Positions 3,338-54,284 of a stretch of DNA of 64,000 bases are shown one piece after another. Made by a program: the position numbers and the translations under genes. The notes below the pieces were generated by a model. That model worked only from the letters and a program-made list of their open reading frames with translations. It had not been told where the DNA came from and ran no database searches. The stretch is from an uncultured Chloroflexia bacterium (lineage in GTDB: Bacteria; Chloroflexota; Limnocylindria; Limnocylindrales; CSP1-4). The DNA lies in NCBI GenBank assembly GCA_963778955.1, contig CAVZWI010000001.1, positions 480,697 to 544,696 of the forward strand, read 5' to 3'. Each line of letters starts with the position of its first letter. The stretch's first letter is position 1.

Positions 3338-4663
3338 ATGGACATCGCCATCATCGGAGCCGGGGTCAGTGGCCTCTCGGCCGCCTACGCCCTGCGCGGA
3401 CAACATCGCATCCGCCTCTTCGAGCGCGACGCCGAGCCGGGTGGGCACGTCAAGACCGTGACCGTCCCGACCGAAGATGGGCCTGTGAACGTCGACACCG
3501 GCTTCATCGTCTACAACGAGCCCACCTACCCCCACCTGACCAGGCTGTTCGCAGAGCTGGGAATCGAGACGCAGTCCACGGAGATGTCACTGGGACACTC
3601 CTGTGAGGCCTGCGGCCTGGAGTTCGGCTCACGTGGTGCGGCCAGCATGTTCGCGCAGCCAGGTTCACTGGCGCGGCCGTCGCACTGGCGCATGATCAAC
3701 GATATCCGGCGCTTCTACAGCGTTGCGCGGCGACGACTCGATGACGATACCTGGACCCGCGAGACGCTGGCGGTGTTCCTCGACAAGGGCGACTACGGCA
3801 ACGCTTTCCGCAGCCACTTCCTGGTCCCGGTGGTGTCGGCGGTATGGTCCACGTCAGCCTCGGAGATCATGGACTTCCCCATCGACTACCTGCTGCGCTT
3901 CCTGGACAACCACGGCCTCATCGGCTTCGGTAAGGGCAAGCCCTGGCGGACGGTGGTGGGTGGCTCGATGACGTACGTCGATCGCATCATGGAGCGACTC
4001 CCTGCCAATTCGCTCGTCGCCGGCGATCCCGTCACCGCCATCCATCGCGACGGCGATGGCGTGACCGTCACCACGCTGTCAGGGCGGATCGAGCGCTTCG
4101 ATGCGGTCATCATGGCCACGCATGCCGATGTCGCGCTCAGGCTCCTCAACGACGCTGACGCCGCCGAGCGAGACGCGCTGGGCCTGTTCGAATACACCAC
4201 CAACGAGGTCGTGCTCCATACCGATGCGTCAGTACTGCCCGGGCGCGCCGGCGCGCGGGGTTCATGGAATGTCGCCACCGTCGACTGTCGCCGCCCAGCT
4301 GACCAGCTGGTGATGACATACTGGATGAACCGTCTGCAACGGCTGGACAGCCAGCACGCATACTGCACGTCAGTCAACCCCGGCGTGAGCATCCCCGACG
4401 AGAAGGTCATCGTTTCACGGCCGATGTCGCATCCCAAGTACACCTTCGACACGCTCGACGGCCAGGAGGCGCTCGGGCGGACTGCAGGGCCACCGTCGGA
4501 CTTCTACGCCGGTGCGCATCTGGGCTACGGGTTCCACGAGGACGGCTGCCGCTCTGGCATCAGGCGGCCGAGATGATCGCCATGCTTGAACCGGCAACGC
4601 GCGTCGGCCGTGGCGCGTCCTGCCCTGGTCGAGGAGCCAGTGCTGGCAGGGGCCGCCGCATGA
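3338..4663 (+). CDS. FAD-dependent oxidoreductase, COG2907/UfaD-like; indels near the 3' end, end approximate
   Basis: MDIAIIGAGVSGLSAA Rossmann motif, FERDAEPGGHVKT, VDTGFIVYNEPTYP, YAGAHLGYGFHEDG; followed by DUF1365 and a cfa-like gene. Confidence 0.85.
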
Positions 4664-37096: not shown

Positions 37097-37257
<161 letters not shown>

Positions 37258-43774: not shown

Positions 43775-44425
43775 GTGACCAAGCACGACGCGCTTCGCAA
43801 GCAACGGATCATCGACTACATCGCCACCACCGTCCGCGAGAGCGGATACCCGCCGTCCGTGCGCGAGATCGCCGCCGCCGTAGGCCTCGCATCGACCTCA
43901 GCCGTGCACCATCACCTCTCGGCGCTCGAGCGGGACGGCAAGCTCAAGCGGGACCCGACCCAGTCACGTGCGCTGCGTCTGACGAGAGCCGCAACGGTGA
44001 CGAATGGTTCGCGGGCCGGCGGCTCGTCCGGGGATGACGATGGCCGGGCCCGGGTGCTGCCCGTCATCGGCGAGATCGCCGCCGGTGGGCCGATCGAGGC
44101 CTACCAGGATGCGAGCGAGACCGTCAGCATCCCGGATCTCATCAACACGTCCGCGAACACGTATGTCCTGCGCGTTCGCGGTGACTCCATGGTCGACGCC
44201 CACATCATGGATGGCGACCTCGTGGTGATTCGGGAACAGCAGACCGCCCTTGATGGTGACATCGTCGTGGCGCAGGTCGACGAGAACGCGGTCACGCTGA
44301 AGCGCTTCTTCAAGGAGCGTGACCGGGTGCGGCTGCAGCCGGCGAACGATGCCTATGAGCCACAGTTCTATGACGATGTGAGGATCCAGGGCAAGCTCGT
44401 TGGAGTGATCCGCCGGGTCGATTAG
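43775..44425 (+). CDS. lexA: SOS repressor LexA
   Basis: GYPPSVREI...GLASTSAVHHHL, IAAG cleavage site, GDSM, TLKRF. Confidence 0.96.
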   Translation: MTKHDALRKQRIIDYIATTVRESGYPPSVREIAAAVGLASTSAVHHHLSALERDGKLKRDPTQSRALRLTRAATVTNGSRAGGSSGDDDGRARVLPVIGEIAAGGPIEAYQDASETVSIPDLINTSANTYVLRVRGDSMVDAHIMDGDLVVIREQQTALDGDIVVAQVDENAVTLKRFFKERDRVRLQPANDAYEPQFYDDVRIQGKLVGVIRRVD

Positions 44426-44594: not shown

Positions 44595-45959
44595 GTGTCG
44601 ATCGATCGCTTGCCGCCGCAGTCAACAGAAGCCGAACAGTCGGTCCTGGGCGCGTTGCTCATCGACAAGGACGCCGTCATCGAAGTCGCAGAGTTGCTCC
44701 GAGCGGAGGACTTCTACCGACAGCACCACGGCACCATCTACGCCGCGGTGCTCGACCTGTACGAGCGAAGAGAGCCGGTCGATATCGTGACGGTCAGCGA
44801 AGTGCTGGAGCGACAGGGCCGCCTTGATGAGATCGGTGGCTCAGCCTATCTGACCAGCCTCATCAACCTGACGCCAACGGCCGTGAATGCGGTCCACTAC
44901 GCGCGCATCGTCGAGCGCAAGAGCGTGCTCCGCAACCTGATCAGCGCGGCTGGCAAGATCGCTGGCCTGGGCTATCAGGAGGACGGCGACATCGGCGAGG
45001 TCATCGACCGTGCCGAGTCAGAACTCTTCGCGGTCAGTGAGAAGCGGGTCGAATCAGGCTTCGCACCGCTGAAGTCCCTCTTGCACAGCGCCTACGACCG
45101 CCTCGACTACCTGCACCAGCACAAGGGTGAGATCAGTGGCATCCGCACCGGTTTCGCCGACCTTGACACGCTGACGACCGGCCTGCAGAAGTCCGATCTG
45201 GTGCTGGTCGCCGCCAGACCGTCCATCGGCAAGACCAGCCTGGCCCTGAATTTCGCCGAACATGCCGCGGTGAACGAGGGCAAAGTGGTGGGCATCTTCA
45301 GCCTTGAGATGAGCAAGGAGCAGTTGGTGCTGCGCCTGCTCTCGTCGGTCGCCAACATCGATTCACAACGCCTGAGGACCGGCTTCCTCGAGGAGATGGA
45401 CTTCACACGGCTGGCGCCGGCCATGAACAAACTGGCGGAGGCGCCCATCTTCATCGATGACACTCCCAACATCAGCGCCATGGAACTGCGGACCAAAGCA
45501 CGCAGGCTGCAAGCAGAATCCGGGCTGGACCTGATCCTCGTGGACTACCTGCAGTTGATGCAGTCGAGCGTCAGCTCTCGGGATGCCAACCGCGTCCAGG
45601 AAGTCAGCGAGATCTCACGCAGCCTCAAAGCGCTGGCGCGCGAACTGCAGGTGCCCCTGGTCGCCCTCTCGCAATTGTCACGACAGACGGAGAACCGCGG
45701 CGAAAAGGGAGAGCCCCGCCTTTCGGACCTACGGGAATCTGGCGCACTCGAACAGGACGCGGATATGGTGATGTTCCTCTGGCGTGAAAAGGAACGCAGC
45801 ACGGACGACCATGAACAGGACGGCGAGATCATCAACCTCAGGCTCGCCAAGCATCGAAACGGTCCTACCGGCGAGACCAAGTTGTGGTTCAAGAAGCGGC
45901 AGACCCGGTTCGTGTCCTACGCTGAGGAGGATCGCTACGCTGAGAGTGCGTACGGTTAG
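44595..45959 (+). CDS. dnaB: replicative DNA helicase
   Basis: PPQSTEAEQSVLG, AARPSIGKT, FSLEMS, VDYLQLM, LSQLSR, SDLRESGALEQDAD, AKHRNGP; no intein. Confidence 0.97.
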   Translation: MSIDRLPPQSTEAEQSVLGALLIDKDAVIEVAELLRAEDFYRQHHGTIYAAVLDLYERREPVDIVTVSEVLERQGRLDEIGGSAYLTSLINLTPTAVNAVHYARIVERKSVLRNLISAAGKIAGLGYQEDGDIGEVIDRAESELFAVSEKRVESGFAPLKSLLHSAYDRLDYLHQHKGEISGIRTGFADLDTLTTGLQKSDLVLVAARPSIGKTSLALNFAEHAAVNEGKVVGIFSLEMSKEQLVLRLLSSVANIDSQRLRTGFLEEMDFTRLAPAMNKLAEAPIFIDDTPNISAMELRTKARRLQAESGLDLILVDYLQLMQSSVSSRDANRVQEVSEISRSLKALARELQVPLVALSQLSRQTENRGEKGEPRLSDLRESGALEQDADMVMFLWREKERSTDDHEQDGEIINLRLAKHRNGPTGETKLWFKKRQTRFVSYAEEDRYAESAYG

Positions 45960-46227: not shown

Positions 46228-46270
46228 CCACGTTAAGCGTGAAGTGAGAGCGCCTCCTGATGATGCGTCG

Positions 46271-49200
46271 ATGGCCGCAACACAGGTGACCTTCGAGCAC
46301 AACGATCGCAGCTCCGCAACCGGAGGAAACGCCCGCGCGCATCCATCTGGGCTTGCGATCATCGCCAGCAAGATCAGCCCAGCGGTCCCAGTACGCTCGG
46401 TGCTCAGTCGCCCAAGGCTCGTCGACTGGTTCGGCCGCCACGCCGCGGCGCGATTGATCCTCATCACGGCGGAGGCGGGCTACGGCAAGTCCACGCTGCT
46501 CAATGACTTCGCACTCCAGACACTCGACCGCTGCGCGTGGTATCGGATGGAGACGTCGGATGGCGATTGGATCACCTTCCTGAGTCACATGGTGGCCGCC
46601 CTCCGTGAGGTCACTCCGGGCTTCGGGTCAGCCACCGAAGCGCTGCTTCGAAACGTGGCTGCGATGGGACCCTCGAGGGAGGTCGTGCTGGCCCAGTTCC
46701 TGGCGGACCTCGGCTCGGTCGAGGCGGGGCGCATCGCCGTGATCCTGGACGACTACCAATACGTCGAAGGATCTGGTGACGTACGCATGATCCTGAGCCG
46801 CATGTTGGAGCGGGCACCCGATCAGATGTACTTCATCCTTGGAGGCCGAGGCAAACCCAACCTCACACTCGGTCGCCTGATCGCCCAGGGCCGTGTCGCC
46901 GAACTGAATACCGACGACATGCGCTTCAGCCGCCCGGAGATCGAGGAACTGTTCGCGGTGACCTATGGGCAGCCGTTGGACGATGCCACCTGCAGTGTGG
47001 TGGCAGAGAGGACCGAGGGTTGGGCTGCGAGCCTGCAGTTGGTCGCAGCAGCGATCGCCCAGACCCAGCCAAGCGAGGTGGCGAGCTTCATCCGGGCGCT
47101 GAGCGGCGCGAGTGCGCCCATCTATGACTTCCTCGCCGAGGAGGTCCTGACCCGCCTGTCACCAGAAACACAGCGCGTCCTGATGCACGCGTCCATGATC
47201 GATCGAGTCCAGCCAGACTTGGTCCGGGCGGCGTTGTCGGAATCGAATGACGGGCCAGAGGCGGAGACCGTCGATGCCGCGCTCGATGACGCCGAGGCCC
47301 TCGGACTGCTTGGGAACAGGAGCAACTCAGCGACCAGCGGCCGACGCATCCATCCACTCTTCCGAGACTTCCTCCAAGCCCAACTCGCCGGGTCAGTCTC
47401 TGGATCGGCGAATCCTGGCCATGCATGGCGCCATCGCAGCGGCAGCTGAATCCTCGGACTGGCAGGTCTCGGCGAAGCACTTTGCCCTGGCAGGGATGCC
47501 GGAGGATGGCTACCGAGTCCTGAGTTCGGCCGCCAGTGAGGCGTTGGGTACGGGGGCCTGGGGGGCGGCGGTCGAGGTGGTGGAACTGATGCCGGGCACG
47601 CCACCTCCGGTTGCGGTCAAAGTGATCCAAGCCAGGGCGCTGGTGAGCGATGGACGTGCGGACGACGCATTCGAGCTCCTTTCGAACGTCGACCGACGGA
47701 CCCTGTCGCCAGAGGAACGCGGGCTGGTCGGCCTCACGTGTGCCGCCATCCACCATATGAACGGAGACGGCGCCAGAGTCTCTGAGGAAGTCGAAGCGAT
47801 CGCGGCCGACGATCACGTGCCCTCGCCACTCCACGAGGTTGCCGTCTCCTGGCGTCAGATCCTGGATGCAAGCGCAGGCGGGTGCATCACCGACGCTGTC
47901 CATATGCTCCGCCGGCTTGCCGTCGACCAACGCCGGGCTGGCCTCCACTACTTCGCGGGCGTAACTCTGCACAACCTTGCCTATGCCGAATTCGCCATTG
48001 GCGAGATATCGACAAGCTCAGGCCCTAGCCCGCGACTCACTGGCCACATCTTGAACGGACCGACGATGGCACGGGCATTGCGGCATCAACGCGAACGATT
48101 GCTGCTGTCGCGGCCGCAGAGATGGGGGACCTTGAAGAGGGGTTGCGAGCATCGTCCGCTATCGCCAGTGAACCAGGAGCCACGGCAGACGCGATTGCAG
48201 ATGCAGCCTATCTCCACGCCGTGTGTGGCCGAAACAGCCAAGCCCACTCGCTGCTGGCCCGGTTCGAACGACGAGACGCTCCGTGGTCTCGCGAGCTTGG
48301 GTCGCGCGCCCAGGGGCAGTACGCGACGATTGCGCTGCAATTGTGCGAGGGCCACTTGTCGGCGGCTGAAGCGACCCTAGTCGACCTTCAGCGACTTCAA
48401 TCAGCTGGCATCGATGCACTGTCTCGGATCGCGCTGGTTAACGCGACTGTGGCGGTGGTGCGCAGGGCACCCAACGCCGAAGATCTACGTTCGTCTCGCC
48501 CTAGACGCAGCCTCGGTTCAGAATGCTTGGAGATGGGAAGCACGCGCACGGATTCTGGAAGCAGTCGTCAATCGTGATCCCGACGGCCTAGCGCACTTGA
48601 TTGCAGCCGCAGAAGAGGAGTCGGCGTTGGCCGTCCTCGAGTTGGCGGACGCCATCGCAACCACAATTGGCTCCCTCGTCCCAATCCCCGATGCCCTTGA
48701 ACGCTCGATTCTGCGCGAGCCGGCCCGATGGATTGCCGCGCTGCGGCGTCAAGTCCAAGACGAGCGCAGTGAGGATGCGAGTGCCGCAGCATCGCTGGTA
48801 GCGCGGTTCGGATCGGCTACCGATGCCGCAATTCTCCGGGAGTTCGACCGCGCCTGCGAAGGCAAGAGCAAACGCCGAGGCTTGGCGTCACAACTCATAC
48901 GTCGTGTCAGCCCAACGGTCCGCGTTCATGACCTCGGACTCACGAGCTATGAGGTAGGTAGTCGCCTCGTGACCATCACGGAGACACGGCGCAAGTCGGC
49001 AGCCCTGCTTCTCTACTTGGTTACCCGGCCAGGCCTAGCCGCGGCAAGAGAGCAGGTGATGGAGGCTCTATGGCCAGATCAGAACCCGAAGTCAGCCTCG
49101 AACAGCCTCCACCAGACGATCTTCTTCCTCCGCAGGGACATCGAGCCGTGGTACGAAGATGGCTCGACGGCGGACTACGTGCGCGTTGAGTCAGAGTTGG

Positions 49201-49655
49201 TCTTCCTGGATCAGGAACTATTCCAAATCGATAGTGTGGCCTTTGCGCGACAGGCGGCTGACATCCTCGCTTCCGGAGCAACCCTCAAACGCGGCCCCGA
49301 ACTCTTGCGGCTGTACAAGGGTGGATTTGCCCCGGAGTTCGAGTACGAGGAATGGACTGAGGACTGGAGAGTCCAACTCCATGGAGCGTACTTGCATCTC
49401 GCGCACGCGACGTCCCGGGCACTAATCGTTGAGGGACGGTATCCGGAGGTCGTCGACGTGCTTACGCCAGTTGTGACTCTGGATCCGACCGCGCTGGATC
49501 TGCGTTCAACGCTCGTCTCGTGTTTGGCAGCCATCGGCGCTGCTGACGCCGCTCAGGCTCACTACCGCAGCATGGCCGCAGCTCATGAGCGTGACCTTGG
49601 CGTTCCTGCGCGACCATACGAGGAGTTGACCAGGAGACCACCCGGCCATGAATGA
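46271..49655 (+). CDS. large MalT-like STAND ATPase/TPR regulator with C-terminal winged-helix + BTAD; several frameshifts (about 47400, 48010-48070, 48485)
   Basis: LSRPRL, AEAGYGKST, ILDDYQ, TEGWAASL, IYDFLAEEV, HPLFRDFL; C-terminal LLLYL...REQVMEALWPD, LRRDIEP, LYKGGF...EEW. Confidence 0.82.
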
Positions 49656-49904
49656 GTAACCCTACGTACTAGTACTTATAGGGCCCAGACAACCCCGTGC
49701 CTAGTGTGCGTCGTGATCAGTCAACTGGCTGATTGCGACCAAGGAGCGTGCACCTTGCACCACTTCGGGGGGCTCGAGAGAGGGGACCTTCGAAGTTGGG
49801 GGACCGTGGCGCTCCCCAATCGATCCCGCTGTGGCTAAAGCCTTGCGGGGCAAGAAGGGGTATGAAATGAATCCAGTCAATCACGTCAAGCCCTGGTAGT
49901 TCAG

Positions 49905-49997
49905 ATGCCTCGCACTATGCTGTCGAGGCTCACGCTGCTATCGACCCTCATCGCGACCCTAATCATCGCGGGCAGCGCGGGCATAAGACCAATCTGA
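49905..49997 (+). CDS. unannotated 30-aa hydrophobic peptide, putative signalling-peptide precursor
   Basis: MPRTMLSRLTLLSTLIATLIIAGSAGIRPI*: basic N-region, hydrophobic core, AGSAG, short tail; directly upstream of the HD-GYP and DUF5317 genes; alternative start at 49917. Confidence 0.65.
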   Translation: MPRTMLSRLTLLSTLIATLIIAGSAGIRPI

Positions 49998-50096
49998 AGG
50001 GCCTAGCGCGCTCCCAGTACGAATGTTGGATGGGGAGTACACCGTATCAGTCGTGATACTGGCATTCTCCCTGTTGGCATTCAGGAGTAGCGCGTC

Positions 50097-51508
50097 TTGT
50101 CATCGAGCCTTCGGATTGTTCTGGTAGCCGTCCCAGCGGCGGCTATCGCGCTGCTCGCGGTGACTTGGCATCTGTTCCCCCCCGATGTTGGCCCTTGCTC
50201 CCACTTGATATTCGGGATTGGTCAACTTGGAGTTACGCGACCCTCCTGTTCTGGATCGGGGTGGCACTCGTAGCGTCGGCGTCACCGGTACATGTCCCAC
50301 GAGGAAACGTCGTGAGTGTCGCGGCGGCCCCGATTATCGCGGCGGGCATTCTCGGAGGGCCCCTAGCTGCCGCTCTGGTAGCTATCGTTGGAACGCTTGA
50401 GTGGCGCGAGTTCCGTGGACACGTCCCTTGGTATGGCGTCGTCTACAACCACTCATTCCCAGTCTTCGCCGCCGTGGCATCAGGTGCGGTCTATCTCCTC
50501 GTGGCAGACCAATTTCCGGTAGGACGGCATCTGACGGGTGTCTATCCGAGTCTGATTGGAGGCGTAGCGTCGGGCGTCGTCTATGTGCTTGTCGGGACTG
50601 CAATGTCCTCCCTGGCTGTCGCCCTGCGGGAAGACCGTCGGCTACTGGTGGTGGTCAGGTCAGATTTCCGCACATTCGGGTTGACGCTGATCGGACTGAC
50701 GCCGATGGCGTGGCTGATGGCGCTGGCATTCGGAGTCGTAGGCCCATTCGTGGCGCTCGTGTTCGCGGTGCCGCTGTACACGACTCGAGCGGCGTTCAAG
50801 GTGGTGGTGGACATTCGAGAGATGTTCACCCAGACCGTACGAGCACTCGCGTCCGCCATCGATGCTCGAGATCCCAGCACGAAGAAGCACTCCGAGCACG
50901 TGTCCGGTATCGCAGTCGAGATCGGCCAGGCCATGAACTTGAGTGAGACCGAGTTGGAGCAGCTCGAATGGGCCGGTCTCCTGCACGACATCGGCAAGAT
51001 CGGCATCCGGGACGCCGTGCTGCTGAAACCAGAGAAGTTGACACGCGAGGAACGGATGCTGATGAACGAGCATCCAGCCAAGGGCGAGGAGATCCTCAAG
51101 GACGTCGACCGACTGGCCGCTGAGCGCCCACTCATCCGGCACCACCACGAGTGGTACAACGGCTCCGGGTATCCTGACCGTCTGATCGGTGAGGAGATCC
51201 CGCTGCTGGCGCGCGTTCTACATGTCGCCGACGCGTTCGAGGCCATGACTGCCTCACGCCCCTATCGCCCTATCCCCTTGAGCACGGCCGAGGCGATCGC
51301 GGAGCTGGACCGCTACGCGGGCATCCAGTTCGATCCCAACGTGGTCAAGGCATTCGCGCGGACCAGGACGGCGATGCAGACGATGCCAGACCAGGACGAA
51401 CCAGGTGAGCTGGAACAGCCGCTCGCGCCGGTGCCGACGCTGGGCCAGGTCGCGGCATCGCGAGCCAAGGGCGCGCTGCCGACGAGTTCTGCTTCGGCCG
51501 AAACCTAG
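50097..51508 (+). CDS. multi-TM sensor HD-GYP c-di-GMP phosphodiesterase; probable TTG start at 50097 with a frameshift near 50190
   Basis: AGGAG at 50083 then MSSSLRIVLVAVPAAAIALLAVTW; about 7-8 TMs; AIDARD..TKKHSEHV, LLHDIGKIG, HHHEWYNGSGYP, ADAFEAMT..RPYR. Confidence 0.9.
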
Positions 51509-51597
51509 ACGGAGCCCTCCCAACCTATGAGGGGTCGGACCGCGCAAACCCGAGCGCGCGCGACGGCGCGCGCTCGACCACACCCGAACCACCACTG

Positions 51598-53588
51598 ATG
51601 CTGCTGGTCGCAGTCATCCTGGGCGTCCTTGCCGGTCTGGTAGCGGGTGGGCGGCTGAGCAACCTCATGTCGGCCCGCCTTCGCTTTGGCGCCCTCATCA
51701 TCGCGGGCCTGTTGCTGCGCGTCGTGACGCAGCGGCTCATCGACGATGGCGTCGACGTCGTGGAGCAGCTGCGCCTGCCGCTGTTCGCACTGTCGTTCGG
51801 CCTGGTGGTCGTCGCTTTGTGGCTCAACCGTTCGCAGCCAGGACTCCTGCTGGCGATGGTCGGAGTTTCTGCCAACGGACTCGCCGTGGTTCTCAACGGC
51901 GGCTACATGCCGGTGTATCTGCCAGCCGTGGAGTTGGTCGGGCTCAGCGTCGATGACCTCTCGACCGCCTTCAACACACCGCTTCCGACCGACCTCGGCT
52001 GGGATTTCCTGCTGGCCGGAGGTCCGCTCGGCGATGTGCTGCCCATCGGCATCCCGCTCCTGACCAATGTCATCAGCCTCGGTGATGTGCTGCTCGCGGC
52101 GGGCATCGCCTGGTTCCTGTTCTCGGCTGTCGCGCGCGGTTCGTCCGATCCCGACAGCGGCGTGGTCTCGATGTGGAGCGCCAAGGCACGGACAGAGTCA
52201 AGCGGAGATCCAACGCCGACTCGTGCTGGCCTGGACCGACCGGTCGTCATCGGCTCGGGTATGGGTCCGGGGCTCAGTTCGACACGGCCCGGAGCCACGT
52301 TCGGGACGCCACCGGCAGGGTCGGCCACTGCTGTCCCGGGCGTCGGACAACGGATCCGCGAGCACCCCTATGCGCGGTTGGCACGCGACCCACGCTTCTC
52401 CGCCTTCTGGCTGGCAGGGACGATCAGTCTGTTCGGGGACCGGTTGCACCAGATCGCATTGGGCGTGATGGTCCTGGCCGTTACCGGCTCGGCGATGCAA
52501 ACCGGGCTGGTTTTCCTGGCCGCGACCTTGCCCAATCTGGTACTCGGGCCGATCGCCGGCACCTTCGTCGATCGCTGGGACCAGAAGCGTGTGATGGTCG
52601 CCACCGACCTGTTGCGCGCCGCACTGGTGGTGACGCTGCCGTTCCTGGCTGAGGTGCACATCTGGCTCATCTACCCAGCCGTCTTTCTCATCACCACCAT
52701 CAGCCTGTTCTTCCGTCCAGCCAAGGCCGCCATCGTCCCGCGTATCGTGCCGCGCGAGGACCTGACTCCCGCCAACGGCGCGATGTGGACCGGGGAGACG
52801 GTCGCCGACATCGCTGGCTACCCCCTGGCCGGGGTGTTCGTGGCCATGGTGGGCGCCAACCTGGCGCTGGCGTTCTGGATCGACGCGGCCACCTACATCG
52901 TCAGCGCGGTGCTGCTTGCCGGACTCGTGATCCCCCTGTGGCACGGGGGGCGGCGACCCGTGTCAGTGGAGCGATGGCGGCCTTCGTCGCGGAGTTGCGC
53001 GAGGGATGGCACTTTCTACGAGGCGACACGGCCCTCTTCCAGAACACGATGGTGAGCGTGATGGCGCAGCTTTCGGTCGGTGCCACGCTGGCATTGATGG
53101 TCGTGTATGCCCAACGGTCGCTCGATGGCGACGTGGTCCCCTATCCCGAGAACTACGCCCTCCTGGAGGCGGCGATCGGTGTCGGGAACCTCGTCGGTGG
53201 GTTCATCGTCGGTGCTATCGGAGCGCGACTTCGCAAGGGTTGGCTGGTCATCACCGGGTTTGCCGTGATGGGCCTCGCGACCATCGTGCTGGGTCTGACC
53301 TCCAATGAGTTGCTCGCGGTCACCGCGGCTGTGGTGATCGGCATCTTCAACCTCGTCTATGTCATCCCGAGTCAGACGCTGTTCGCCGAACGCACACCGG
53401 CGGGCATGATGGGGCGAGTCGTGGCCATCCGCTCCAGCATCGTGATGGGTGCGCTGTCCGGGGCGATGGCCGTAAGCGCCGGACTAGCGGATCGTGTGGA
53501 TGCTGGCTTGATCATCGCCGCCACCGGTGTCCTCACGGTGATCTCTGCTGTCGTCGCGGCCTGGCTGCCGGCCGTGCGCGACGCTTAG
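51598..53588 (+). CDS. DUF5317 domain fused to an MFS transporter, frameshift near 52935
   Basis: N-terminal GGRLSNL...ANGLAVVLNGGYMPV...LGDVLP...ISLGDVLL; in-frame linker; MFS FSAFWLAGTISLFGD, GTFVDRWDQKRVMVATDLLRA, GMMGRV. Confidence 0.85.
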
Positions 53589-53693
53589 ACAGGTGGACTG
53601 GGCCTTCGAATGAGGCCGACGCGTCGCGCAGGCAAGAGCGGCCTGAGCCCGCGATAATCGTCACAACGCAAGGACGAGGGAGAGCTCTGCCGC

Positions 53694-54284
53694 ATGACCG
53701 ACCAGCACGAACCGAAAGACGCCATCACCGACGATCCACCAGTCACGGAGACCGAGGGGGTCGAGGCAACTACGCCTGAGGCGGCCACGCCAGCATCATC
53801 GGCGAGTCCGTCCAGGACGGCGGCGGAAGGCTCGACGAACCCCGCCGTGAAGAGTTCGTCGAAGCCGGCGGGCAAGGGACCCGAGAGCCCCGACGAACTG
53901 CCCTACTTCGACGATCCGGTGAGCAAGTGGTGGATCGTCCTCATCGCGGCGGTGTTCGCGCTCATCTTTGCCTGGGCGATCCTCCTCGGCTCGGGCGGCC
54001 TGCTCGGTGGCCTGCTCGACTCAAGCGACTCCAGTGTCGCGACCTCGTCGCCGGAGGCCACGCCCAGCGCTTCCATGGAGCCGGGGCTGACTGCCGCACC
54101 AAGCGTGTCGCCCGTAGCCACCGCCGCACCGCCTGCCACGGTGGCGCCCAGTCCCGAGGCCACCGCAAAGCCGACCACCAAGCCTGAGCCCACCAGCATG
54201 CCGACGCTCGAACTGACGGCCCAGCCAGACGCGTCCGTGGCGCCGGGAGTCAGCCAGGAACCCGCCACCAGCCCAGGTAGCTGA
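53694..54284 (+). CDS. single-TM protein with a Pro/Thr/Ala-rich tail
   Basis: LPYFDDPVSKWWIVLIAAVFALIFAWAILLG followed by a PTA-rich linker. Confidence 0.7.
   Translation: MTDQHEPKDAITDDPPVTETEGVEATTPEAATPASSASPSRTAAEGSTNPAVKSSSKPAGKGPESPDELPYFDDPVSKWWIVLIAAVFALIFAWAILLGSGGLLGGLLDSSDSSVATSSPEATPSASMEPGLTAAPSVSPVATAAPPATVAPSPEATAKPTTKPEPTSMPTLELTAQPDASVAPGVSQEPATSPGS

Follow-up and report, generated by a model that had tools for sequence, protein, structure and literature searches.

A 64,000-nucleotide (nt) stretch of DNA from an uncultured Chloroflexia bacterium (Limnocylindrales, CSP1-4; contig CAVZWI010000001.1 of assembly GCA_963778955.1, positions 480,697 to 544,696), hereafter the window, carries at positions 46244-53588 a cassette in which every element lies on the + strand. 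Comparing this cassette with its relatives, we give even weight for and against the proposal that it is a conserved operon for a membrane-embedded cyclic di-GMP (c-di-GMP) signalling module built around a dedicated micro-peptide. The peptide is encoded by ORF B, an open reading frame (ORF) of 30 amino acids (aa) that stands upstream of a membrane HD-GYP c-di-GMP phosphodiesterase and of a DUF5317 domain fused to a transporter of the major facilitator superfamily (MFS). A first-pass annotation of this DNA had described five elements, i.e. a regulator gene, a leader, the 30-aa ORF, the HD-GYP gene and the DUF5317-MFS fusion, and all five were found at the positions it gave and on the + strand (Table 1).

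Conservation of ORF B within and beyond Limnocylindria

Relatives of the cassette, found with the HD-GYP protein, come from metagenome-assembled genomes (MAGs) labelled Chloroflexia, Chloroflexota or Candidatus Limnocylindria/Limnocylindrales, including CSP1-4. Synteny counts refer to these 80 related loci (L001-L080) unless stated otherwise, and counts of B to the 75 of them whose upstream sequence reaches 150 nt or more. In 70 of the 75 loci, an ORF of 28-32 aa with the tail pattern of B stands upstream of HD-GYP, and the same pattern had no match in the other 1,498,270 nt of these loci, both strands included; in the whole 3.25-Mb source genome it matches a single ORF, the B of the window. 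Frameshifted remnants of B are present in three of the five missing loci (L004, L014 and L040). Differences among the copies lie mostly at third codon positions (0.52, 0.35 and 0.64 at positions 1, 2 and 3), and the ratio of non-synonymous to synonymous differences (pN/pS) was 0.60 in frame as against 1.15 and 1.41 in the shifted frames. Judged by this pattern of conservation, ORF B is a genuine conserved gene, as the first-pass annotation had proposed. We also considered a type I toxin function for B but put it aside, since the synteny of B with signalling genes is fixed across phyla.

The window copy of B carries the junction A-G-S-A followed by the tail G-I-R-P-I. Analysis of 50 distinct 29-aa versions revealed low entropy at R7, A21, G22, G23 and A24 and in the tail S-L-(R/K)-(G/P)-F, with A24 in 50/50 and G22 in 49/50 versions. 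The basic residues R4 and R7 precede variable hydrophobic positions 8-20, and this hydrophobic core has an entropy of 2-3 bits with no helical periodicity. A tail of 4-9 residues follows directly after the near-invariant Ala. Signal peptidase I cleavage obeys a rule of small residues at positions -3 and -1, and B shows a basic n-region, an h-region and small residues at -3/-1, i.e. a signal-peptide-like build in which the cleavage itself is a prediction. With most of its conservation in A-G-G-A and the five C-terminal residues, B fits a signal-peptide-like precursor with a short C-terminal product, e.g. GIRPI.

Beyond Limnocylindria, we examined a wide set of 80 loci obtained from a species-genome scan with an alignment of stand-alone DUF5317, which carry the labels Bipolaricaulota/Acetothermia, Thermotogae, Bacillota, Thermoleophilia/Gaiellales/Actinomycetes, Spirochaetaceae, Armatimonadota, Fraserbacteria and Chloroflexota. 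Homologous B-type ORFs in this set are 24-60 aa long. A hidden Markov model (HMM) of the family gave 68 matches among 5844 small ORFs, all 68 on the strand of DUF5317, in 55 of the 80 loci; these matches come from MAGs labelled Bipolaricaulota, Thermotogae, Bacillota, Thermoleophilia/Actinomycetes, Armatimonadota, Spirochaetaceae and Chloroflexota, and most of the loci without a match have too little flank to hold one. As a check on circularity, HMMs were trained on one side and searched against the other. The HMM built without Limnocylindria sequences gave 39 matches among 8402 small ORFs, each of them the B of a different Limnocylindria locus and on the operon strand, and the converse HMM gave 10 matches among 9529 small ORFs in 10 loci, all ten with the B-type build. 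The scan that the first-pass annotation had proposed, i.e. of DUF5317 neighbourhoods for ORFs of 20-45 aa that combine hydrophobic core, small-residue motif and short tail, was accordingly positive across phyla.

The family varies in build and position. Other Chloroflexota classes carry a B-type ORF of 24-48 aa just 5' of stand-alone DUF5317 or of the adjacent HD-GYP, and over the whole family the ORF may precede HD-GYP, directly precede DUF5317 or follow DUF5317. The commonest form outside Limnocylindria starts M-K-W and ends (A/S)-G-A-x-x-K-W-x, and the only column conserved at 90% or more family-wide is the Ala. At DUF5317 loci of other phyla, B-type ORFs sometimes stand in 2-4 tandem copies; in two Bipolaricaulota-labelled MAGs, three to four of them lie upstream of HD-GYP-DUF5317 (L189, ~1060-1600; L229, ~1388-1850). 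No Pfam or NCBIfam model matches the B peptides, and 47 database homologues of B at E ≤ 0.01 are unnamed or called 'hypothetical protein' and have no Pfam domains. Literature searches, which did not cover supplements, found no paper describing the B peptide family or its link to DUF5317.

DUF5317 and the genes linked to it

DUF5317 and MFS lie downstream of HD-GYP in 72 of the 80 loci and share one stop-free frame in 69 of these 72, and the C-terminal part of the regulator lies upstream of HD-GYP in 69 of the 80, the remaining 11 having less than 900 nt of upstream flank. In a sample of 301 Chloroflexota genomes, PF17248, the Pfam family of DUF5317, was present in 92 (a tally that includes the unpublished genome G227), and DUF5317 frames of fusion length occurred in only two Limnocylindria families, 15/15 in each. 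Neighbours of stand-alone DUF5317 in 30 other Chloroflexota loci included HD_5 (13), BTAD (13), MFS_3 (5) and GGDEF, alone or with EAL or HD_5 (2). A second arrangement was found in L116, L117 and L120, where HD-GYP is itself fused to MFS_3 in proteins of 844-847 aa, with a B-type ORF on the 5' side and stand-alone DUF5317 and an AI-2E-family transporter on the 3' side; a matching ORF of ~845 aa in L121 was identified by size and position only. In this family a LuxR-type two-component pair takes the 5' place of the STAND/SARP regulator. That HD-GYP, DUF5317 and MFS_3 are tied together is supported by these permuted fusions.

The source genome also holds, on another contig, a second module (contig C3, 315529-318402; L249), composed of a 27-aa B-like ORF, stand-alone DUF5317 (94.2 bits) and a GAF-GAF-GGDEF protein (161.2 bits), this cyclase being split by a frameshift. 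From this module and the neighbour survey it follows that the constant pair is the peptide and DUF5317, and that the c-di-GMP enzyme beside them may be a phosphodiesterase or a cyclase. We regard B and DUF5317 as probably a cognate pair.

The DUF5317 domain of the window scored 76.6 bits against a cut-off of 25 and covers profile positions 3-150 of 151. Its AlphaFold2 model (predicted local distance difference test score 93.4) has five long helices, with a 60-residue segment containing short strands before the last helix. Twelve positions are invariant in 80/80 wide-set domains: N77, G89, N93, N100, G101, G102, M104, P105, D146, S160, G162 and D163. The invariance of N100, G101, G102, M104 and P105 is partly selected, since N-G-G-x-M-P was part of the wide-set search pattern; the other positions lie outside that pattern. 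The N-terminus of MFS transporters is cytoplasmic. With DUF5317 fused upstream of the MFS, its own C-terminus should therefore be inside, and the segment with D146 and D163 should in turn face outward, on the same side as the tail of B. Searching the DUF5317 HMM against PDB sequences gave 0 matches at E ≤ 10, the ESM Atlas, with PF17248 excluded, offered no named look-alike of use, and no second Pfam family recurred in 55 DUF5317 members at E ≤ 10. Three runs of complex prediction with the MASE9 domain, DUF5317 and B, all of L003, scored 0.05, 0.40 and 0.14 against a mark of 0.32 with no controls, and are evidence neither for nor against a complex. Full-text search on 'DUF5317' or 'PF17248' found no papers.

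The HD-GYP protein matches HD_5 (PF13487) at 136.9 bits against a cut-off of 27.2, and the translation of 50165-51508 shows both the HD and the GYP motif. Its start is probably the TTG at 50097, which stands behind AGGAG, and its N-terminus is in another frame because one base is missing near 50187. Over positions 31-189 of the 203-position MASE9 profile (PF20972, cut-off 24.3), the orthologues in L003, L007 and L025 gave weak to borderline matches of 13.9, 17.0 and 24.2 bits. A Chloroflexota DUF5317 neighbour, in L094, reached 27.1 bits; the window copy, with its broken N-terminus, had no match at E ≤ 0.01. MASE9 was defined on Thermotoga maritima TM1467, for which the accessible text of the report proposes ligand binding within the membrane (bioRxiv 10.1101/2021.11.05.467447), and HdgA of Streptomyces venezuelae is described as a membrane protein of six transmembrane helices and HD-GYP (PMC6205966). 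The cassette enzyme resembles both in joining a multi-transmembrane N-terminal domain to HD-GYP. Unlike TM1467 and HdgA, for which the accessible text of the sources mentions no partner micro-peptide, DUF5317 or MFS, it belongs to a conserved module of four to five genes and is fused to MFS_3 in one Chloroflexota family.

The N-terminal half of the window's MFS protein matches MFS_3 at 60.7 bits and MFS_1 at 54.1 bits, and its C-terminal half MFS_1 at 56.6 bits. A match to TIGR00900 of NCBIfam (E 3.4e-40) agrees with membership of DHA3/MFS_3 (PF05977) for this frameshift-split copy, and the intact 662-aa DUF5317-MFS orthologue in L003 scores 90.4 bits with MFS_3. Analysis of the regulator revealed AAA_22 (31.8 bits, cut-off 27) and AAA_16 of Pfam in its N-terminus, together with the MalT equivalog of NCBIfam (E 5.9e-51 over model positions 2-333, below the full-length cut-off), and Trans_reg_C (29.5 bits, cut-off 26.2), BTAD (35.7 bits, cut-off 22.1) and TPR_19 in its C-terminus, domains that place it among both the MalT-like STAND and the SARP proteins. 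Pfam scans of the large ORFs in 46244-54284 found only AAA/BTAD/Trans_reg_C/TPR_19, HD_5, DUF5317 and MFS, with no AgrB, AgrC or RRNPP family among them; the operon could still work like RRNPP or Agr systems despite having no such families.

Leader RNA, micro-ORF A and the window copy

The 249 nt between the regulator and B (49656-49904), which the first-pass annotation had taken as simply non-coding, hold a conserved 10-aa ORF and a structured RNA. In the sister group the leader runs in the order TTGACC-N17-TATAGT promoter, CTAGTAC-N5-GTACTAG palindrome, c-di-GMP-II aptamer, hairpin with T-run and Shine-Dalgarno (SD) sequence of the 10-aa ORF, termed ORF A. In 5 of 6 sister loci searched, the aptamer (RF01786) was matched over its full length and scored 61-71 bits, the gathering score being 53.5. 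A model built from these five aptamers (R1) found c-di-GMP-II aptamers in 50 of the 80 loci; none was found with it in the window, its 19 closest relatives, L025, L026, L032 or L056. An aptamer in the window leader was rejected, since RF01786 found nothing there at E ≤ 5 and R1 with filters off scored no higher than 2 bits.

In its place, the leaders of the window clade share a P1 helix (GGAGCG at 49743-49748 with CGCUCC at 49810-49815) and an inner hairpin at ~49764-49796. The 3' strand of P1 runs on into an anti-SD (CUCCCC) complementary to the SD of ORF A, GAAGGGG. Of the cells of the alignment, 94% were paired as compared with 40-63% in slid controls; in five pairs both bases were changed, a number that 3 of 500 shuffles attained, and L005, L015 and L046 carry compensatory versions of the P1 helix. 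A model of this leader (R2) matched 7 of 19 same-genus genomes, once in each. On these alignments, the c-di-GMP-II riboswitch of the sister loci is replaced in the window clade by a different structured leader, which is a candidate new cis-regulatory RNA, and the 21-nt element listed in Table 1 is a probable promoter or operator. The sister loci resemble RF01786 operons in having an above-threshold aptamer and a terminator-like hairpin upstream of a c-di-GMP phosphodiesterase operon, whereas the window clade differs from them in carrying its other structured leader, and no aptamer, at the same place.

The motif CTAGTAC/GTACTAG occurs in three places, i.e. as the promoter palindrome, as an inverted repeat after the -10 in sister loci, and as (C)TAGTAC 0-30 nt after the stop of B (sister loci L030, L007, L013 and others); it could be an operator or an alternative RNA pairing. 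Among 38 loci searched in other classes and phyla, one, L113 of another Chloroflexota class, carries a c-di-GMP-II-GAG aptamer (RF03169, 40.9 bits against 40) upstream of two B copies, and no known riboswitch was found upstream of B in the other 37. Elsewhere in the source genome there are five full-length c-di-GMP-II-like matches below the threshold (32.7-45.4 bits against 53.5; Table 1).

ORF A encodes MNPVNHVKPW, ends in TAG and is preceded by its SD (49854-49860) at a spacing of 6 nt; B starts 5 nt past its stop and, in the window, lacks an SD. The pattern M-x-P-(N/E/D)-x-x-x-K-x-W-stop was found in 57 of the 75 loci, with no match in 1.41 Mb of control sequence, and inspection of 17 apparent misses revealed a variant or a frameshifted remnant in 16. 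Six loci have a short form of 6 codons, M-(S/T/V/A)-I-K-x-W, and in L059 (~4560-4660) A is expanded to a triple tandem repeat of a 9-residue unit ending K-G-W. Of 45 distinct versions, 40 carry W10, and K8 never varies. A ends in five residues that match the B tail in pattern (small, branched hydrophobic, basic, P/G/A, aromatic), and in the window the two tails share this protein-level pattern in different codons. Outside Limnocylindria, A was not found upstream of B in 55 loci; loose and heterogeneous matches to A-type micro-ORFs in 7 of these were taken as chance. ORF A may encode the tail peptide in leaderless form or serve as a coupling/leader ORF.

The position of both small ORFs between a riboswitch or structured leader and HD-GYP raises the alternative that A and B are only translated leader ORFs for attenuation or translational coupling of the HD-GYP operon, and that their peptides are functionless. 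In line with this, a conserved anti-SD covers the SD of A, B follows A so closely with no SD in the window, the TAG stop is over-used (A 49/57 and B 48/70, compared with 748/2519 genome ORFs of at least 300 aa), and A lacks a pN/pS signal. The B protein is, however, conserved across phyla at loci that have no riboswitch and occupies differing operon positions. We hold this alternative to be highly improbable for the two ORFs together, while a leader-ORF reading of A alone is plausible.

Table 1. Positions of the cassette elements in the window and of related features in other loci and contigs
Feature	Position	Strand	Basis or source
Regulator: MalT-type STAND ATPase with C-terminal OmpR-type winged helix-turn-helix and BTAD (SARP-like)	46244/46271-49655	+	Pfam, NCBIfam
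21-nt element with palindrome GTACTAGTAC and TATAGG -10-like hexamer	49663-49683	+	Invariant in 14/14 window-clade leaders
Structured leader RNA (candidate)	49732-49869	+	Pairing and covariation
Micro-ORF A, 10 aa	49867-49899	+	Pattern conservation, own SD
ORF B, 30 aa	49905-49997	+	Conservation, cross-phylum family
Membrane HD-GYP c-di-GMP phosphodiesterase, MASE9-like multi-transmembrane domain and HD_5	50097-51508	+	Pfam, relatives
DUF5317 domain, 5 predicted helices	51598-52152	+	Pfam, 76.6 bits
Linker of ~70 aa and MFS_3/DHA3-type transporter, fused to DUF5317	52153-53588	+	Pfam, NCBIfam
HD-GYP-MFS_3 fusion ORF	L116, 8169-10709	-	
HD-GYP-MFS_3 fusion ORF	L117, 4357-6900	+	
HD-GYP-MFS_3 fusion ORF	L120, 8083-10617	-	
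HD-GYP-MFS_3 fusion ORF	L121, 8116-10653 (candidate, by size and position)	-	
Sub-threshold c-di-GMP-II-like match	C2:523172-523255		Source genome G000
Sub-threshold c-di-GMP-II-like match	C1:1481939-1482025		Source genome G000
Sub-threshold c-di-GMP-II-like match	C2:532274-532360		Source genome G000
Sub-threshold c-di-GMP-II-like match	C1:86125-86213		Source genome G000
Sub-threshold c-di-GMP-II-like match	C1:1479946-1480032		Source genome G000

The large genes of the window copy are broken. Alignment with the closest relatives L001 and L004 (identity ~87-92%; 87% to L001 over the alignment) revealed six private single-base indels in 7.3 kb. Insertions near 47407, 48005, 48046 and 48487 leave the regulator in three reading frames (46244-47449, 47247-48380 and 48414-49655), the base missing near 50187 spreads the N-terminus of HD-GYP over two frames, and a base missing near 52934 shifts the C-terminal half of the MFS, which likewise occupies two. 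In the relatives these genes are intact, the regulator being a single ORF of 1132-1147 aa, HD-GYP having 451-467 aa and a TTG start, and DUF5317-MFS having ~662 aa. Long-read MAG relatives (L004, L006, L008, L014 and L017) carry private frameshifts of their own at other positions. Since such relatives are broken elsewhere and the genes of relatives are intact, the frame breaks in the three large window genes are probably assembly errors. Were the six indels real, the cassette of the source genome would be a decaying pseudogene cluster, a reading to which their number against two such close relatives and a genome completeness of 84% lend some weight. We consider it improbable, given that relatives of the same long-read type have private frameshifts at different sites, that both small ORFs and all domain-level similarity are undamaged and that the adjacent dnaB is intact.

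Just 5' of the cassette lie a LexA-like ORF (43775-44425, +) and a DnaB-like ORF (44595-45959, +; 454 aa), both judged by eye from the translation; the second is intact, so that not all window genes are frame-broken. Directly 3' of the MFS, a 196-aa ORF rich in Pro, Ala, Ser and Thr with one hydrophobic segment (53694-54284, +) matches no Pfam family, is 37-68% conserved in close relatives and may be part of the operon. Further upstream, the window carries a full-length FMN riboswitch (RF00050) at 37099-37253 (+), with 75.2 bits against a gathering score of 66.2.

A proposed mechanism and its alternatives

In the mechanism we propose, the operon would be controlled by the MalT/SARP-type activator encoded 5' of it and by the regulatory leader that would open the transcript. 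B would insert with its N-terminus inside and its C-terminus outside, and its junction and tail would meet the invariant Asn/Asp site of DUF5317 at the outer face of the membrane. DUF5317 or signal peptidase would process B behind the invariant Ala, and either the peptide product or the state of DUF5317 with its peptide would set the activity of the partner c-di-GMP enzyme. The MFS would move the peptide, and ORF A would supply a leaderless copy of the tail motif or serve as the coupling/leader ORF. We put the processing of B at somewhat below an even chance and consider it improbable that the signal acts between cells.

DUF5317 might be a new family of outer-face intramembrane aspartyl peptidases (or a peptide receptor), with the micro-protein yielding a 4-9-residue signal that switches HD-GYP/GGDEF enzymes; we hold this unlikely. 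The likeness is to LspA (Peptidase_A8) and GxGD aspartyl peptidases, which are also small polytopic proteins with two invariant Asp, the second in an x-G-D that opens the last helix, and the B junction L-A-(A/G)-G-A resembles a lipobox minus its Cys. DUF5317 differs from LspA in having five helices where LspA has four and in giving no significant sequence, profile or fold match with it. LspA chains were the most sequence-identical rows of the structure search (16-17%), and hhalign, at a low probability (4%), lines up D146 and D163 with the two Asp that are invariant in LspA (VVDF, NxAD) and that we take to be its catalytic dyad. A canonical LspA is encoded elsewhere in the source genome, according to a tally that includes the unpublished genome G038.

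Several observations weigh against processing of B by DUF5317 and against the module as a whole. Foldseek with the DUF5317 model had no match in the PDB at E ≤ 0.001 (best E 2.3), and the best hit of the VIA structure search had a Z of 5.6 (designed helical bundles), with LspA chains at 4.8 and 4.6, within noise. The hhalign comparison with LspA reached E 0.01 over 42 columns besides its low probability, and PF01252 (Peptidase_A8) matched 0 of 55 DUF5317 members at E ≤ 10. Some tails of B-type peptides at DUF5317 loci begin with Pro after the Ala, and Pro directly after the cleavage-site Ala is not accepted by signal peptidase I. In four loci (L020, L022, L044 and L050) the regulator, A, B and HD-GYP are present but the next 5 kb downstream hold no DUF5317-MFS, codon-level analysis of ORF A revealed no sign of selection, and three window genes are frame-broken, so that the window copy could be inactive. 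The first-pass annotation had read B as a peptide precursor tied to DUF5317 and c-di-GMP, with a short and variable C-terminal tail. Conservation, cross-phylum linkage and the fusions uphold the tie, which we consider the best reading at present, and the short tail stands, but the variability expected of a private signal does not, the same type G-A-G-(I/F/L)-(K/R)-W being common to several phyla. The first-pass annotation had overlooked ORF A, the riboswitch of the sister clades, the frameshifts and the occurrence of DUF5317 and its peptide beside a diguanylate cyclase.

A serious rival is that B is never cleaved and acts as a stable single-pass subunit or allosteric modulator of a membrane complex of DUF5317(-MFS) and HD-GYP. 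In many family members an M-K-W start and a K-W-x end place Lys and Trp at the two membrane interfaces, so that K-W flanks the helix on both sides as in stable single-pass anchors; the very short tail is shared by distant phyla, B keeps a tight co-orientation with DUF5317, and the ligand binding within the membrane proposed for MASE9 would suit such a subunit. MgrB-PhoQ, KdpF and AcrZ exemplify small membrane proteins that modulate sensor kinases or transporters, and B resembles them as a single-pass protein of 25-50 aa co-transcribed or co-regulated with a membrane signalling protein or transporter. It differs from them in that its conservation lies in the predicted extracytoplasmic junction and tail and not in the helix, and in that its output would be c-di-GMP turnover. 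The hydrophobic core is the least conserved part, with A-G-G-A and the tail conserved instead; identical tandem copies, up to four, are commoner among consumed precursors, and ORF A repeats the tail motif alone with no helix. We rate the uncleaved subunit as a minority possibility, if one to be taken seriously.

A more far-reaching version of the proposed mechanism, the one put forward in the first-pass annotation, is a full quorum-sensing circuit in which DUF5317 cleaves B, the MFS exports the product, the membrane domain of HD-GYP detects it on the outer side and the STAND/TPR regulator serves as a second receptor, so that cell density is converted into c-di-GMP. It draws on the same comparative evidence as a processed precursor, on the linked or fused DHA3/EntS-type MFS and on the regulator gene conserved beside the operon. 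With B inserted N-terminus in and C-terminus out, however, its tail would be outside already and no exporter would be needed; the tails are not diversified among close species (those of L001-L003 differ from the window by 0-2 residues), the tail motif recurs across phyla, and HD-GYP has no visible extracellular domain. The complete circuit seems to us quite improbable.

Known peptide precursors offer a partial parallel for processing of B. The Phr-type (Rap/Phr), SHP/Rgg and PrgQ systems use exported Gram-positive peptide precursors or pheromones, Phr of Bacillus being a pentapeptide. B shares with them a signal-peptide-like small ORF, a candidate functional C-terminus of ~5 residues, a gene beside its partner and tandem copies. 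It differs in having no pro-region and no RRNPP receptor or Opp importer nearby, in partnering DUF5317 and c-di-GMP enzymes, in a tail that is cross-phylum and not strain-specific, and in its hosts, which are Chloroflexota and other deep-branching phyla.

To our knowledge, the inputs of membrane-bound c-di-GMP enzymes are largely unknown, and MASE-type domains have no known ligands. B is a concrete candidate for such an input, as a genetically locked micro-peptide that stands next to phosphodiesterases and cyclases in distant phyla and that gene callers overlook or label hypothetical. New in this operon are also a conserved ORF of 6-10 codons and the swap of a c-di-GMP-II riboswitch for another structured leader at the same operon, and the natural HD-GYP-MFS and DUF5317-MFS fusions define cooperating membrane parts. 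If the peptide is processed into a signal, peptide signalling would be linked directly to second-messenger turnover. If DUF5317 is the peptidase or receptor of that signal, there would be an unannotated peptide-to-c-di-GMP pathway across many phyla, of which the Limnocylindria version would have gained a fused MFS, a leaderless second peptide gene and riboswitch feedback.

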